Positions 49,572 to 59,867 of a stretch of DNA of 64,000 nt are shown one piece after another. Made by a program: the position numbers and the translations under genes. Origin of the DNA: an uncultured Verrucomicrobiae bacterium (lineage in GTDB: Bacteria > Verrucomicrobiota > Verrucomicrobiia > Limisphaerales > Palsa-1400); the NCBI GenBank assembly GCA_963764165.1, contig CAVXRD010000002.1, forward strand, positions 3,264,001 through 3,328,000, written 5' to 3'. Position 1 is the stretch's first letter, and every line of letters starts with the position of its first letter. Below the pieces are notes generated by a model that was given only the letters and a program-made list of their open reading frames with translations, did no database searches and was not told the DNA's origin.

Positions 49572-49647
49572 TTCACAGAAGATAACGAAGCGAACGAAGA
49601 AGTCCGTATTCCCATCCTCTTCGTTGCCTTCGTGTTCTTCTGTTGAA
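49572..49647. repeat. REP-like inverted repeat
   Basis: TTCACAGAAGATAACGAAGCGAACGAAGA ... TCTTCGTTGCCTTCGTGTTCTTCTGTTGAA. Confidence 0.55.
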
Positions 49648-49714
49648 TTTTCACAGCCGCCGTACGCCGTTCGACGTAATGACGGCATGCCGCGCACTCG
49701 CTAGAGTCGGCACC

Positions 49715-52700
49715 ATGAAAAGTAATCTAATTGACACACTCACGCTCGCTCGCCGAGCGAATCGGGGAACCAACGGGCCACAGCCAAATGAGCCATTTCG
49801 CTTTGCCAGCTGCTTCCGAATTCTCAGCCTGCCACTTCAGTTTCTCGCCGCCTTGATGCTGGTGACAAATGCCATCGCGGCACCGGCGTTGAAGATCACG
49901 ACCAAGTCGCTGCCCAACGCCACGGTGGGCACGCCGTATCTTCAAACACTGTCCGTCTCCGGCGGCGCGCCGCCTTACACTTGGGCCGTGCAATCGGGCG
50001 GACTGCCGAGTTTGCTGACCCTTAATCCGACCAACGGACAAATAACGGGGATGCCCACCGCCTCGGGTTCTTGGGTCTATAGCTATCCGTTTTCCGTCTA
50101 CATCAGGGTTGCCGACGCGAATTCGAACACGGCCTTCGCCAGTTACTCGTTCTACGTTGTTCCCCCCTCCAACACTTACTACCAGTTGACCGTCAACAAC
50201 GGCACGGGCGGCGGGTTTTACACCTCGAATACATCTGTCGCCATTTCGGCCAACAATGCCCCGGCTGGCCAGGCCTTTCAGCAATGGGTTGGCGCGCCGG
50301 TCGGTTCGCCGACTTCCGCATCCACGACTCTGTTGATGCCGGGTTCGAACGTCACCGTGACGGCGACATACGCGCCTGTCAATCAAACCTACGCGCTCAC
50401 GGTGGTCAACGGCACGGGGAGCGGTTCCTACGCCTCGAATGCCTCCGTGACCATCACCGCCAATCCCCCCGCCGCCGGCCAGGTGTTCCAATCGTGGACC
50501 GGCGCGGCGGTGGCCAATCCACTCTCGGCGACCACGACGCTCGTCATGCCCGCGGCGACCGCGAAGGTGACCGCCAATTATGCGGCAATTCCGTCACTCG
50601 CGATTGTCAAACAAACGCTGCCGAGCGCGGTTGTCGGCGTGCCGTATTCACAGGCTCTGAGCGCCACGGGAGGGTTTCCGCCTTACACTTGGAACGTGCA
50701 GTCCGGCGCATTGCCGGATGTTCTGACGTTGAATTCGACCAACGGGATTATTTCGGGCATCGCGACGGCGGCCGGATCATGGGTATTCACATACACCAAC
50801 CTCGCTTATGTCGTGGTGACCGATTCGGCCTCCAACACCGCCGCGGCCACCTTCGCAATACCGGTGGTTCCCGCGCCCAACACATATTTCACATTGACAG
50901 TCTCCAACGGAACTGGCGGCGGGTTTTATTTGACAAACACGCAGAACGGAATTTCCGCCAACGCCCCGGCCGCCGGGCAAATTTTCCAATACTGGACCGG
51001 GCCGGGCGTGGCGAATCCCAATGCAGCCAACACCTACGTCACGATGCCCGCGTCCAACATCACCGTGACGGCGGTTTATGGCACGGCTCCGCCGCCTCCG
51101 CCAACCTACGCGCTGACTGTGGTCGGTGGAACCGGCGGCGGCTCCTACGTGGCGGGCTCCACGGTGACGATTACGGCGAACACGCCGCCCGCGGGCGAAG
51201 TGTTCCAGGATTGGACGGGCGCGGCGGTCGGAAACCTGCTCGCCAGCACGACAACCATCATCATGCCGGCGGGCCCGGTAACGGTGACCGCCAATTTTGG
51301 CGCGCCGATTCCGACCTATTCGCTTACAGTGGTCAACGGCACGGGCAGCGGAAATTTCCCAGCCAACGCCACAGTGACGATTACTGCTAACTTTCCCTCC
51401 AGCGGCCAGTCGTTTGCCGGCTGGAGCGGCGCGAGCGTGGCCAGTGCAAGTTCGCTGACCACCACCCTCGTCATGCCGTCCAACAATGTGATTGTGACGG
51501 CAAATTACGGATTCCCGCCGCCTGCGGTCACCAACGTGCCGCAGCCGATTGCCAGCCATCCGCGTTTGTGGATCACGCCAGCCGACTTGCCGCGTTTGCA
51601 AAGCTGGGCCGTGGCGTCCAATGCCATTTATTCGCAGGGCCTGAAGCTCCTGGCCGATAAATGCGTTTACGATTTCCAGACGCAATTCTTCCCCGGCGGC
51701 CAGCCGAATCCGAATTATCCGGACCCGGGCGACACCCAGGGTTACGTCGGGTTGATCTCCGAGCAATACATGCTGGTGCTGGCGTTCAACGCCTTGATTG
51801 ACCCAAGCCAATCCAACCGTGTTCTATACGGCCAATGCGCGCACGACTTGATGATGTATGGCATCAACCAGGCGGCCCAGGGAGTGGCCCCCAACCTGCC
51901 ATTCCGGGATCGGCTGTTCCCAACTTACAATCGCGCGAGCTGGACTTCGGAAGCGTGGCCATTGACGCTCGATTGGCTCTACGACGCCACCAACGCCAGC
52001 GGACAGCCCATGTTCTCAGCACAGGACAAGGCAACGATCCGCAATGTGTTCCTGACGTGGGCCAGTGAATGCTCGACAGCGGAGACCACTGGCGGGGACA
52101 GTCCGTATCCGGTAGGTGTGTTGAATGATCCCAGCCTCCTGCCCGGCGGCAACGCCTACCGCTTTGCGGCCAACAATTATTACCAGGCGCACGCGCGGCT
52201 GCTGGCTATGATGTCGCTCTCGATTGACCCGGCCGACGACGCGCCGCTCAACACAAACCAGCCGCCGGCCCAGCTCGGCAACACGCTGCGCAGCTATATA
52301 CTTGACGTTACCGGCGCTTGGCTCTACCAGCAATTCGCCATGTTCGGCGACCCGGATGCGGTGGAAAGCGCCTACAATCTGCCCGCGACGGCTTCGGTCG
52401 GATTGGCCAGCGGCGGGCTTCCGCCGGAAGGCATGCTCTACGGCGATTCCGTCCGCTCCATCGCGGAGGAATTGCTCGCGCTCAAAACGGCGGGCTTCGG
52501 CGATCCGGCCCTCTCCGGCCCGCAAATCGCGCTGGCCAACAATGCGCCGGTTTGGTCGAGGTTCGTCACCGGTTTCATTTCTTCGCTGGTGCCGCAGCAG
52601 GCCGTGCCCTCCGATGAAAGCTACCTTGGCGAAGTTTACCAATTCGCCAGTTACGGCGATGTGTTGCGGATGTTCGCCACGCCGGACATGGTGACCGTGT

Positions 52701-53983
52701 TCGGATCGCTCAGTTTGCTTGACAGGCAGAATAACGACCTCTCGCGCCTGAACGCGGATCGCTGGTTTGCGATCAACGCTGTTCAAGGCGGCGCAGCGAG
52801 CCTGATGACGCGCGTCCAAGATCCGTGGACGTGGGGTGTGCAGGATTCGATCTTCCTGTTTCTGTTGCTTGATCCATCCGCCACGACGACGGATCCGCGT
52901 CCGAATTATTCAACGTCGTTCTATGACCCGGGGCAGGGCCGGTTGGTGGACCGCACGAGTTGGGCGCCGAACGCAACGATGTTCGATTTCCGTTGCAGTT
53001 GGGAATCGATCAACCACCAGCAGGCGGACGCCAACCAATTCGAGTTTTATCGCAACGGCGAATGGCTGACCAAGGGCGTGGCCAACTATGACAACAACGA
53101 CAATGGCCAATCCTCGCTCTATCACAACACGCTGGCGTTGCATAATTGGTGCTCCGGCGGTATTCCCACCAACCTGGATTGGTCCCTGCCGTTTTGGACA
53201 AACGGATCGCAATGGCCGCTGGGCTTGAACAATGGCGACCCGGTCACCTATGCCAGCGTGCAGGCCAATTATGACTACGCGTTCGGCGATGCCACGCAGC
53301 TCTACAACAAGCCCGAGTATTGGATTCCGAGCAGCGCGGCGCTGGATATCAAGGAAGCGAGCCGTTCCATTCTTTGGCTCAAGCCGGACCACATCGTGAT
53401 CTACGATCGCGCCACATCGCACACGGCGGGTTTGTTCAAGGAATTCAATCTGACCTTCCCGAACCTGCCGACCGCGAACAGCAACGTCATCACGACAACG
53501 ACGCCGGGTGGACAGCATCTGTTCATCACCTCGCTCCTGCCGGCTGATGGTGTTCTTTCGGTCAATTCCATCGACGGATTGTTGACAACCTACGCCGATC
53601 TCGAGCCGTGCCATTACCGCATGGCAATCCAGGATCCGTCCAGCCCGACGAACTCACGCTTCCTGCATGTCTTGCAGGGGACGGATGCGAACGCCACGCC
53701 GGACGATGCAACGCTCGTGCAGAGCACCGGAGGAACACCAATGGACGGCGCGATCTTCGGAGAGAACGCAGTGATGTTTGCGACGGATTCGCAGGCCGCC
53801 TTTACCGGTGTCACATACACGGTGCCTGCGAATGTCACCCAGCACTTTGTGACGGGGTGCGTTCCCGGAGCGTTTTATAATGTGGTCACGGGAATCTCGG
53901 GCGCTGGACTGACGGTGACGATTACGCCGGCCGCCGCAGGTTTCCAAGCGGACTCGGCAGGCGTTTTGCCGTTGAGCTTCTAG
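49715..53983 (+). CDS. Large secreted protein: Ig-like (He_PIG-type) and InlB-B-like repeats plus a heparinase II/III-like lyase region
   Basis: 'LP.A.VG.PY.Q.LS..GG.PPYTW' x2; 'Y.LTV.NGTG.G.Y...V.I.AN....F..W.G' x5; HPRLW; NHQQADANQFEFYRNGEWL; HNTL. Confidence 0.82.
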   Translation: MKSNLIDTLTLARRANRGTNGPQPNEPFRFASCFRILSLPLQFLAALMLVTNAIAAPALKITTKSLPNATVGTPYLQTLSVSGGAPPYTWAVQSGGLPSLLTLNPTNGQITGMPTASGSWVYSYPFSVYIRVADANSNTAFASYSFYVVPPSNTYYQLTVNNGTGGGFYTSNTSVAISANNAPAGQAFQQWVGAPVGSPTSASTTLLMPGSNVTVTATYAPVNQTYALTVVNGTGSGSYASNASVTITANPPAAGQVFQSWTGAAVANPLSATTTLVMPAATAKVTANYAAIPSLAIVKQTLPSAVVGVPYSQALSATGGFPPYTWNVQSGALPDVLTLNSTNGIISGIATAAGSWVFTYTNLAYVVVTDSASNTAAATFAIPVVPAPNTYFTLTVSNGTGGGFYLTNTQNGISANAPAAGQIFQYWTGPGVANPNAANTYVTMPASNITVTAVYGTAPPPPPTYALTVVGGTGGGSYVAGSTVTITANTPPAGEVFQDWTGAAVGNLLASTTTIIMPAGPVTVTANFGAPIPTYSLTVVNGTGSGNFPANATVTITANFPSSGQSFAGWSGASVASASSLTTTLVMPSNNVIVTANYGFPPPAVTNVPQPIASHPRLWITPADLPRLQSWAVASNAIYSQGLKLLADKCVYDFQTQFFPGGQPNPNYPDPGDTQGYVGLISEQYMLVLAFNALIDPSQSNRVLYGQCAHDLMMYGINQAAQGVAPNLPFRDRLFPTYNRASWTSEAWPLTLDWLYDATNASGQPMFSAQDKATIRNVFLTWASECSTAETTGGDSPYPVGVLNDPSLLPGGNAYRFAANNYYQAHARLLAMMSLSIDPADDAPLNTNQPPAQLGNTLRSYILDVTGAWLYQQFAMFGDPDAVESAYNLPATASVGLASGGLPPEGMLYGDSVRSIAEELLALKTAGFGDPALSGPQIALANNAPVWSRFVTGFISSLVPQQAVPSDESYLGEVYQFASYGDVLRMFATPDMVTVFGSLSLLDRQNNDLSRLNADRWFAINAVQGGAASLMTRVQDPWTWGVQDSIFLFLLLDPSATTTDPRPNYSTSFYDPGQGRLVDRTSWAPNATMFDFRCSWESINHQQADANQFEFYRNGEWLTKGVANYDNNDNGQSSLYHNTLALHNWCSGGIPTNLDWSLPFWTNGSQWPLGLNNGDPVTYASVQANYDYAFGDATQLYNKPEYWIPSSAALDIKEASRSILWLKPDHIVIYDRATSHTAGLFKEFNLTFPNLPTANSNVITTTTPGGQHLFITSLLPADGVLSVNSIDGLLTTYADLEPCHYRMAIQDPSSPTNSRFLHVLQGTDANATPDDATLVQSTGGTPMDGAIFGENAVMFATDSQAAFTGVTYTVPANVTQHFVTGCVPGAFYNVVTGISGAGLTVTITPAAAGFQADSAGVLPLSF

Positions 53984-54073: not shown

Positions 54074-54173
54074 GGTAGGGACGCCTCGCCGAGGCGTCCA
54101 GGGTGAGGCGCTCTATATGCGCAAGCCGTGGCACGAGTCCGCGCAACCGGACGGCTCGGCGAGGCCCCCTGCC
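54074..54173. repeat. GTAG-type REP doublet
   Basis: GGTAGGGACGCCTCGCCGAGGCGTCC plus a degenerate inverted copy; the same unit occurs at 57493-57573. Confidence 0.8.
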
Positions 54174-57492: not shown

Positions 57493-57573
57493 GGTAGGAA
57501 CGCCTCGCCGAGGCGCCCGGGTTGAGGCTTTATTTGCGCGTAGGACCGGACGCCTCGGCGAGGCGTCCCTACC
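57493..57573. repeat. GTAG-type REP doublet
   Basis: GGTAGGAACGCCTCGCCGAGGCGCCCGG ... CCGGACGCCTCGGCGAGGCGTCCCTACC. Confidence 0.8.
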
Positions 57574-57643
57574 TTTCTTAGTCCACGCCCCGATGCAGGC
57601 TTCAACACCGGAGGCCGCGAATGGTCGCGGAGGAATGAATGAT

Positions 57644-57686
57644 AAAAACAATAAGCCCCCACCCGGCCTTGCGGCCGAATGGGGGC
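57644..57686 (-). terminator. Intrinsic terminator closing the putative large ncRNA
   Basis: Minus strand GCCCCCAUUCGGCC-GCAA-GGCCGGGUGGGGGC followed by UUAUUGUUUUU. Confidence 0.8.
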
Positions 57687-58523
57687 AAATTGGGGGCTGG
57701 GAGTTCGCCAATCTCTCTTTCCCACGCTGACATTAGGCGCACCCAACTGGGGCTGCCAGCTTCCCGACGCCATTCTCCACGGCAAGCGGAGTTTTGCGGC
57801 CTCATAGCAGGGCCGTCCAGCGCCTTGCGGTCACTGAATTTATTGAGTGAGGCCTCTTGGCTCGCTTGGGCTGGCGTTTGCAGCGCCGACTTGCGAACCA
57901 GGTTAAGACACGTTTGCGATTTCGATTCCGCGTCTTAACCATTTTGCGCCGGGACGGCCACCGTTTTTGGCGGTGCGTTGGCCCGGTGCTACGGGTCTGA
58001 CCTCTTAACTCTCAGGTTGCTTCTTTTCACAAGCCAGCGGTGCTGTTTTTAACATCGCCGACGTTTCGGAAGGGTTTTTACATGCCTTGCCTGGGCCGTG
58101 TTTCCTTCCCGCTGCGCGCGCTCACTTTGTCCCGCCTTTCAGCGTCTTTCTTTGGGCCGGCCTTCGTTGGAAGACCGCCAGAGTCGCGCACATCGTGCTG
58201 ATCCACAGTAGCAACCGTCTACCCTCTGGGTAACTGCGATTCACTCAAGCCTGAAACCGTCTTGAGTTACTTGACTCGGCTCGATGCAGTTTCTTTATCT
58301 TGCATTTAACCGCTCAGTTCCTGCTTCGCGTCACTGACAGCGTGCGAGCGCTGCCAGAGGAACTGGTGAATCCTGCCTCCGGTCTCCGAACCTTGCGATC
58401 CAGACTTAGAGGGGTTGAGCCAACCAGCCTGGCCCAGCCTTTCCCCAGTCACCTGGGATTATCCTTGGAATGTTTGCAACTTTCTTTCGTCCGCCACTCC
58501 CACTCCAGCTCTTTCAATGAACT
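57650..58523 (-). ncRNA. Candidate large (~870 nt) highly structured non-coding RNA, GOLLD-like in size and architecture
   Basis: No credible ORF; flanked by a promoter, boxA-like leader and terminator; many helices and GNRA loops whose G-U pairs form only on the minus strand; 5'/3' closing helix. The family assignment is unverified. Confidence 0.7.
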
Positions 58524-58538
58524 GTTAAGAGAATAGCA
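58512..58538 (-). promoter_or_regulatory. Extended -10 promoter (TGcTATTCT) followed by a boxA-like GTTCATTGAAA
   Basis: -10 at 58535-58530, TG at 58538-58537; boxA-like element at 58522-58512. Confidence 0.55.
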
Positions 58539-58564
58539 GATTTCTGTGGCCTGAACATCAATTC

Positions 58565-58716
58565 TTGTTCACCGAGTTATTCACTTTCGGGAAAAATTAT
58601 TCACCACCTCGCAATCGCGTAAAGCATTGCGCATAAATCATTTGAGACATGCGTGTGAATAGCATGTCAGGGTGGCCGAACGGGCAAGAAAGGGGACGGT
58701 GGATAAGTTCTTCACG
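58565..58716. promoter_or_regulatory. Cluster of six degenerate DnaA-box-like 9-mers
   Basis: TTGTTCACC 58565, TTATTCACT 58577, TTATTCACC 58597, rc CTATTCACA 58654, rc TTATCCACC 58698, TTCTTCACG 58708 (consensus TTWTNCACA). Confidence 0.55.
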
Positions 58717-59573: not shown

Positions 59574-59867
59574 ATGATTTCAAATGAACGTCCGTCGCAT
59601 TCGGGCGGATACCGGTCTTACAGCGCTGGTCCTCCCAAACCACCAGTCAACGAAGATACACTAAGGACAGAAAAAATTCAGATCGAACGAAAGACCTTTA
59701 TTTTTACGCTGAAGGAAAATCCGCGCGGTCGTTTTCTCCGCATCACGGAAGACGTCAATGGCCGCCGCGATAACGTCATCATCCCCTCCACGGGTTTGGA
59801 AGAGTTCCGCAAAGTTCTTGAAGAAATGGCGAAGACGTCCGCCGAAATGCCTCCCAAAAATCAGTAA
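59574..59867 (+). CDS. PUR-family (PurA/DUF3276-like) ssDNA/RNA-binding protein
   Basis: ERKTF.F.LKENPRGRFLRITE....RR..VIIP..GL.EF. Confidence 0.85.
   Translation: MISNERPSHSGGYRSYSAGPPKPPVNEDTLRTEKIQIERKTFIFTLKENPRGRFLRITEDVNGRRDNVIIPSTGLEEFRKVLEEMAKTSAEMPPKNQ

Follow-up and report, generated by a model that had tools for sequence, protein, structure and literature searches.

A single-copy MISL RNA gene in a verrucomicrobial chromosome: a proposed compact scaffold RNA with an rRNA-like transcription unit and a promoter probably controlled by DnaA

The locus described here, on the minus strand of a 64,000-nt stretch of DNA (the window, by which this whole stretch is meant), raised the question of which large RNA it encodes and how that RNA is made. 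In a first-pass annotation it had been described as a stand-alone structured RNA, equipped with a promoter, a boxA-like leader and a terminator, and as either GOLLD-like or undescribed. The whole window was compared to Rfam 15 using cmscan, resulting in three matches: two tRNAs and a full-length match to the MISL RNA (RF03079) on the minus strand at 58464-57700 (580.1 bits against a gathering score of 274.6, E-value 1.5e-175, model positions 1-751 of 751). At E-values up to 10, the locus gave MISL and four sub-threshold chance matches and nothing else. The GOLLD, ROOL, OLE, HEARO and raiA models had no match at the locus up to this value, nor had the models of RNase P, tmRNA, group I and group II introns and the hammerhead ribozyme. 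The stand-alone unit was thus borne out, as an RNA of about 880 nt, and the assignment as GOLLD-like or undescribed was refuted. A comparison to Rfam, proposed at the time with those first five RNAs as candidates, did recover a known large RNA, but its identity is MISL and none of the five. The earlier remark that no RNase P, tmRNA or group II intron signature was present agreed with the Rfam result at the locus; genes for RNase P RNA and tmRNA were found in this genome, both away from the MISL locus. In the rest of the genome no GOLLD match was obtained, in a search performed without a positive control.

The consensus helices of RF03079 were retained in the alignment of the locus to the model, and the identification as an MISL RNA gene is practically certain. 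Only one MISL copy was found in this genome. The locus is an additional member of a catalogued but neglected family and represents neither a new RNA class nor a GOLLD RNA; as a new class it would be no discovery, since Rfam already names MISL. The family presumably originates from the 2017 survey of 224 motifs. The word MISL does not occur in the main text of PMC5737381. In a literature search on MISL, the sole mentions were in two figure legends of the Ribonanza preprint (accessible part of 10.1101/2024.02.24.581671), where the RNA serves as an example; subscription papers may hold more. The present analysis adds to the Rfam display a 5' extension, four pseudoknots, a DnaA-box-like promoter and the presence of the family in RNA libraries.

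The transcription unit was assigned to 58523-57644 on the minus strand (about 880 nt), based on the Rfam match at 58464-57700, on a 5' extension and a terminator kept in homologues, and on metatranscriptome cover. Its 5' end was placed about 7 nt past the -10 element (near 58523) and its 3' end at the terminator U-tract. From these sequence elements we infer that one RNA of about 880 nt is transcribed from about 58523. Relative to this likely 5' end the Rfam model begins about 60 nt late, and it breaks off about 55 nt short of the end of the terminator; for this reason it contains neither the boxA-like motif and two 5' hairpins nor the terminator. The extended -10 element TGCTATTCT was confirmed at 58538-58530, where it had been proposed; among 90 homologous upstream regions, 47 have TAnnnT in the same position and 32 have TGnTAnnnT. 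A consensus promoter scanner did not report the element at this position. The intrinsic terminator (57686-57644) consists of a 14-bp stem (57686-57655), a GCAA loop and the U-rich tail TTATTGTTTTT. It had been recognized before as GCAA-capped and is supported by covariation, with up to 12 compensatory events per stem pair in a tree-based count over 89 homologues.

The conserved 5' extension of about 60 nt opens with the boxA-like motif GTTCATTGAAA at 58522-58512, which was likewise found where it had been described. It lies within a hairpin (58522-58508, GUUC-7 nt-GAGC/GAAC) outside the Rfam model, and GTTC[A/C/T]TTGA was present in all 37 Rfam-selected loci with upstream DNA. The rRNA leader of this genome carries GATCATTGAAAA and its rRNA spacer GTTCTTTGACAA, both similar to the MISL motif, and a NusB gene was found in this genome. 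The motif deviates from the boxA consensus GYTCTTTAANA, which is that of gamma-proteobacteria as given in the accessible part of PMC5725501. Moreover, its first four bases are able to pair in the hairpin, which was counted against the boxA reading; a pair counter applied to 56 sequences found the hairpin to be 98.7% paired, with one-sided changes only. Judged from the motif, a boxA role is likely. Nus factors promote the folding of rRNA, according to the same part of PMC5725501, and it is moderately probable that the MISL motif would similarly recruit a NusB/NusE complex and so aid folding. Separately, a dispersed repeat that ends in ...CAGGGCGTGTTCTTTGAAAT and bears a boxA-like motif was observed in about nine copies in this genome (examples at C1:437510, C1:782058, C2:1835174, C2:2574142, C2:3114593, C3:180203 and C5:50286).

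Sequences of the family were detected in 20 RNA runs of 13 studies of peat, soil, wetland and mine drainage, each run containing 23-32% of the sampled words from a 1.5-kb stretch. In four runs searched at 80% likeness, thousands of short contigs covered 57619-58528 and almost nothing was found outside; these empty flanks are no control, since the flanks of relatives differ. The contigs give no strand, ends or level because they mix many relatives. The MISL family is present in RNA libraries, and there is a hint that the RNA is abundant.

Folding of the minus strand yielded -362.8 kcal/mol (z -5.64, none of 20 shuffles equally good), and folding of the plus strand -329.7 kcal/mol (z -2.31, one of 20 shuffles equally good). 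The minus strand is thus more stably folded than expected by chance and also surpasses the plus strand. The earlier choice of strand stands. For comparative analysis, 89 homologues were aligned from the boxA motif through the terminator (845 columns, mean identity 0.68). Rfam-selected loci comprised the best 30 of 45 matches among relatives plus 8 phylum-wide matches, and 36 of these 38 had both flanks. From 83 loci selected by pattern, 21 were dropped as truncated or without an end anchor and 9 as duplicates, and 53 were kept. Compensatory changes were counted on a tree of the 89 homologues, and the pair counter was applied to 56 of them, hand-picked for spread. These two methods were used because a mutual-information ranking, with 301 pairs above z 6 and only 78 of them base-pairing, contained many isolated long-range pairs that represent tree noise. 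A coding function had been judged not credible for lack of an open reading frame, and this holds: only short or shadow ORFs overlap the locus, and the 89 homologues carry no coding signal, with no 3-base periodicity (0.229/0.252/0.254) and with 1533 of 1815 indels breaking the frame (not multiples of 3).

On the tree of the 89 homologues, 49 pairs showed at least four compensatory events and were at least 90% paired, mostly inside the helices of the RF03079 model. Among the helices proposed in the first-pass annotation, 58365-58358/58315-58322, 58267-58261/58243-58249 and 57940-57929/57901-57912 each showed compensatory changes, as did the CGCU-GAAA-GGCG stem, which was found in its expected place. 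A GCAA-capped stem near 58395 is present in the sequence and drawn as a helix by Rfam, but it falls in a poorly alignable hairpin and received no support from the two of its eight pairs that could be scored. The proposed helix 57798-57804/57848-57854 had no compensatory events and conflicts with the Rfam structure; it was abandoned. An end-to-end closing stem of UGGGAGU (58502-58496) with ACUCCCA (57704-57698) had also been proposed. All seven pairs form here, yet the stem was complete in none of 35 other loci, which formed one to six of the seven; its positions were paired in 12-83% of the 89 sequences, and no compensatory event was counted. This stem was rejected as chance complementarity.

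Both ends of the RNA fold locally instead. At the 5' end, 58506-58502 pairs with 58467-58471 on the minus strand in a hairpin outside the Rfam model (58506-58467), which takes up the start of the UGGGAGU segment; all five pairs change on both sides among the 56 sequences, and 2, 5, 6, 3 and 1 compensatory events were counted for them on the tree. At the 3' end, a local closure on the same strand (57723-57693) is made of GAG 57715-57713 with CUC 57703-57701 and GGG 57723-57721 with CCC 57695-57693. The pair 57714/57702 showed five compensatory events and was 100% paired. The GGG/CCC part, 98.2% paired with one two-sided change, is weakly supported.

Four pseudoknots were identified by covariation, all on the minus strand; paired fractions and two-sided changes are given for the 56 sequences. 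In pseudoknot 1 (58347-58326), the loop 58347-58343 pairs with 58330-58326 (96.4% paired, both-sided change in three of five pairs). Pseudoknot 2 (58216-58015) joins GGUUGC 58216-58211 to GCAACC 58020-58015 (99.4% paired, both-sided change in six of six pairs), and its pair 58214/58017 showed seven independent events on the tree. Pseudoknot 3 (58032-57914) is formed by UUGUGA 58032-58027 and the hairpin loop UCGCAA 57919-57914 (97.6% paired, both-sided change in five of six pairs, tree events at all six). In pseudoknot 4 (57809-57768), the loop UGCUAU 57809-57804 pairs with AUGGCG 57773-57768 (96.1% paired, both-sided change in three of six pairs, two and three tree events at two pairs). Together with the short 3' helix, 97.5% of the cells were paired and 18 of 26 pairs changed on both sides; none of 500 shuffles was as good, and slid controls paired at 33-51%. 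Tree-based counts agreed for the three pseudoknots scored in this way. The Rfam seed may already hold the four pseudoknots, since cmscan prints nested pairs only. The nested helices and the four pseudoknots form the secondary structure of the RNA, from which we infer, as a model, a compact three-dimensional shape. A hammerhead-like appearance of CUGCUAUGAG-GCCG-CAAAA near 57810 was dismissed, as no Rfam match was obtained and the loop pairs in pseudoknot 4.

According to the proposed mechanism, MISL would be transcribed on its own, from a gene organized like a small rRNA gene. Transcription would be driven by a sigma-70-type promoter, the boxA-like motif at the 5' end would recruit the NusB/NusE complex and aid co-transcriptional folding, and the intrinsic terminator would end the transcript. 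In the product of about 880 nt, many hairpins would be tied by the four pseudoknots into a compact body. Such an RNA might form an accessory scaffold particle, stable and abundant, which would bind proteins or further copies of the RNA and work in trans. This role, drawn by analogy with OLE, ROOL and GOLLD, is put forward tentatively and given slightly less than an even chance. A covarying palindromic kissing loop of the type that bridges OLE and GOLLD was searched for in the alignment and none was found, which was counted against the scaffold reading; the scan returned one near-invariant palindrome, GCGC at 57740. The reading as a whole, an rRNA-style, probably DnaA-controlled, stand-alone compact RNA scaffold, is considered moderately likely.

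The main rival holds that MISL is a ribozyme or a ligand-binding RNA and that its highly conserved 3' half, with its pseudoknots, serves as an active site and not as a scaffold. It was suggested by the conservation of the alignment, in which 186 of 845 columns are at least 97% conserved and 113 are invariant at a mean identity of 0.68, although the measured conservation is inflated because 53 of the 89 sequences were chosen by an invariant motif. Conserved columns cluster around UAAGAGG-NN-AGACCCGU, GCCUCACUC and GCGUCGGG. The four pseudoknots also fit an active site; ROOL, by contrast, has only 10 highly conserved nucleotides, as stated in the accessible part of PMC5737381. No ribozyme family matched at E-values up to 10, however, the genome has separate genes for RNase P RNA and tmRNA, and no gene for a maturase, reverse transcriptase or nuclease was found linked to MISL. 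An active site of this kind is therefore regarded as unlikely, and the scaffold particle is retained as the working proposal.

The occurrence of MISL was determined in further genomes. Of 60 relatives, 43 contained it, with scores over the cut-off in 40 (41 of 61 genomes with this one counted), and none of 14 control genomes had a match. Phylum-wide, 8 of 150 genomes contained it, six of them from one family. MISL was not found in 17 of the 60 relatives or in 142 of the 150 phylum-wide genomes, and five relatives of 93-98% completeness, one of the same genus, gave no MISL even on deeper search; the RNA is therefore patchy and probably dispensable in some lineages. In a search with the invariant motif, 74 of the 80 listed genome matches bore Verrucomicrobiota names, and the six other labels are probably mis-binned, mislabelled or contaminant contigs. 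MISL sequences were observed in assemblies labelled Dongiaceae, Stutzerimonas, Saccharimonadales and Bifidobacteriaceae (L081, L089, L090, L120, L126 and L128). One relative carries a lone 76-nt fragment of the MISL 3' part (G007:C1:3154355-3154430), and another a full-length but divergent copy that scores 214 bits and so falls below the cut-off (G046:C17:43193-43962).

Upstream of the promoter, a cluster of DnaA-box-like sites was found at 58565-58706, namely, in plus-strand letters, TTGTTCACC (58565), TTATTCACT (58577), TTATTCACC (58597), TGTGAATAG (58654) and GGTGGATAA (58698). In homologues such sites recur at about -50, -62, -82 and -184 from the boxA motif, and the box near -185 is inverted. 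A scan was performed with TTWTNCACA, which we took as the a-priori DnaA-box consensus. At up to one mismatch it gave 16.0 sites per kb upstream of 37 loci versus 0.94 per kb in their flanks (17-fold), and of the 62 loci of a second set, 61 had at least one DnaA-box-like site. In the 7-Mb genome the tandem form of the box motif is restricted to five or six places, two of which lie directly before dnaA and mraZ. The box motif precedes dnaA in six of six genomes, and the dnaA promoter itself has just a tandem pair and one site. With four boxes in 230 bp, the MISL promoter is the densest lineage-type cluster genome-wide, by a pattern partly derived from MISL loci. Five TTWTNCACA-type sites in 230 bp are also carried by six other places in the genome, which was counted against the DnaA reading, and were reached by 2 of 328 GC-matched windows.

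On the sequence evidence it is fairly probable that DnaA binds the conserved boxes, which lie just upstream of the -35 region, and so couples RNA synthesis to replication or growth state, as proposed for dnaA and the mraZ division cluster. A literature search on DnaA control of such RNAs yielded nothing bearing on the question. In domain IV of the dnaA product (L039:3420-3758), the DNA-binding signature reads RDHGTVLHA. The E. coli signature is RDHTTVLHA, and the variant may fit the TTATTCAC(A/C) box of this lineage. Two further tandem box clusters were observed in this genome as possible origin or DnaA targets: three boxes at C2:3472469 (L040), where a cold-shock/TPR gene and a hisB-family gene flank the intergenic region, and two at C2:3499109 (L041), flanked by a phosphoesterase gene and an unnamed ORF.

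The box array could also matter in itself, as a datA/DARS-like sink or a replication origin, with the RNA or its transcription serving the array. The density of the cluster in the 7-Mb genome, the fixed spacing in homologues with the inverted distal box, and distances of 44 kb and 155 kb between MISL and dnaA in two single-contig genomes speak for this. In two other long contigs, however, the distance is about 1.48 and 1.56 Mb, and both genes lie on one contig in one of 40 relatives, most of which are fragmented. No GC-skew switch was seen at the locus, in a genome with weak skew, and MISL was not found in the five near-complete relatives. Such an array would also leave 880 nt of conserved structure unexplained. 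An origin at the MISL locus was rejected on account of the variable distance to dnaA (0.04-1.6 Mb), the missing skew switch and the patchy presence, and the array in general is considered quite unlikely to be the functional element. DnaA control of the MISL promoter remains the preferred reading of the boxes.

The surroundings of MISL in the window are ordinary chromosomal genes, in line with the housekeeping and not prophage setting described earlier, and no phage structural gene was present among 10 neighbours. On the promoter side lie a DUF4149 gene, a PurA-like gene, rsfS, a cytidylyltransferase-family gene (which we take to be nadD-like) and cstA; downstream follow an unnamed 212-aa gene and an acetyltransferase gene. 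Beside the other 37 MISL loci, no homologue of any of the four nearest genes was found. Neighbours of MISL loci differ in identity and orientation and the promoter and terminator are conserved, so that a role in cis is disfavoured. Neighbours called by longest ORF are often shadow frames (37 of 67 without a Pfam match). The small PurA-family nucleic-acid-binding gene (59574-59867, plus strand) lies 1 kb from the MISL promoter, and no PurA-family gene was found within 1.5 kb of other MISL loci. Further observations in the window were a REP-like palindromic repeat just past the terminator (57547-57573, also at 54074-54098, with a looser copy at about 57501-57520), whose core pattern has 569 matches genome-wide, both strands counted, and its longer form 259, and a gene (49643-53983, plus strand) for a secreted-looking protein of 1446 aa that contains Ig-like and InlB B-repeat domains, followed by a long C-terminal part to which no domain was assigned.

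That MISL is a GOLLD-like cage RNA of phages or tRNA arrays, or a new class, is very improbable; as to the family, GOLLD is refuted by the Rfam models at the locus, and the genome search, performed without a positive control, gave no match either. Size and ornate fold are similar, and a tRNA-Met gene follows MISL within 1.5 kb in four of 38 loci, all from one genus (L003, L007, L019 and L024), with an integrase-family gene beyond it in both loci of that genus that were scanned. Against this, MISL was not found among 50,697 phage and 72,556 plasmid records, and no phage structural genes were among the 10 neighbours. Three contigs from viral collections (L051, L052 and L053) contain MISL pieces fused to ORFs that we take to be RNA-virus-like, and were read as assembly chimeras because two of them share one ORF joined at different MISL points. 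Carriage by phages was thus rejected, the three contigs being probable chimeras and phage records giving no match; such chimeras in viral collections could mislead virus catalogues. A cis-acting leader or riboswitch for the 212-aa gene, which starts on the same strand about 200 bp beyond the terminator, is hardly credible, as its homologue stands beside none of the other 37 loci, the longest downstream ORFs differ in family and strand, and the conserved terminator shows strong covariation, with no sign of a competing structure.

The host phylum of MISL is common in soil and peat, and the family has been neglected as a target. The likely full ends, the four pseudoknots and the DnaA-type promoter provide a ready construct for cryo-EM, and the promoter offers an initial, testable hypothesis on the timing of MISL synthesis. 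In its most far-reaching form, MISL would be an abundant RNA machine of the DnaA regulon, made in rRNA style with boxA/Nus, its highly conserved core locked by the four pseudoknots, and acting as a cell-cycle-linked particle or catalyst in Verrucomicrobiota of soil and peat. This form is improbable; if the DnaA-regulon reading is true, a giant ornate RNA would be under control of the replication initiator.

Among known systems, GOLLD (RF02032) and ROOL are like MISL large, ornate and pseudoknotted bacterial RNAs. GOLLD frequently exceeds 800 nt (PMC12286853), and both reside in phages or prophages near tRNA islands (PMC12286853, PMC5737381; accessible parts of both articles). MISL, unlike these, is single-copy and chromosomal, has no phage or plasmid record, and has a tRNA gene nearby in four of 38 loci. 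OLE and the raiA-motif RNA share with MISL the character of stand-alone structured bacterial RNAs. OLE adjoins oapA, whereas MISL has no conserved partner gene alongside and matched neither the OLE nor the raiA model. OLE forms an RNA dimer and binds proteins, as described in the accessible part of PMC12286853. The leader of rRNA operons shares with MISL a boxA-like motif at the 5' end, which in MISL is close in sequence to the motifs of the genome's own rrn operons; in contrast to the rRNA leader, the MISL motif departs from GYTCTTTAANA and belongs to a conserved 5' hairpin of the RNA.
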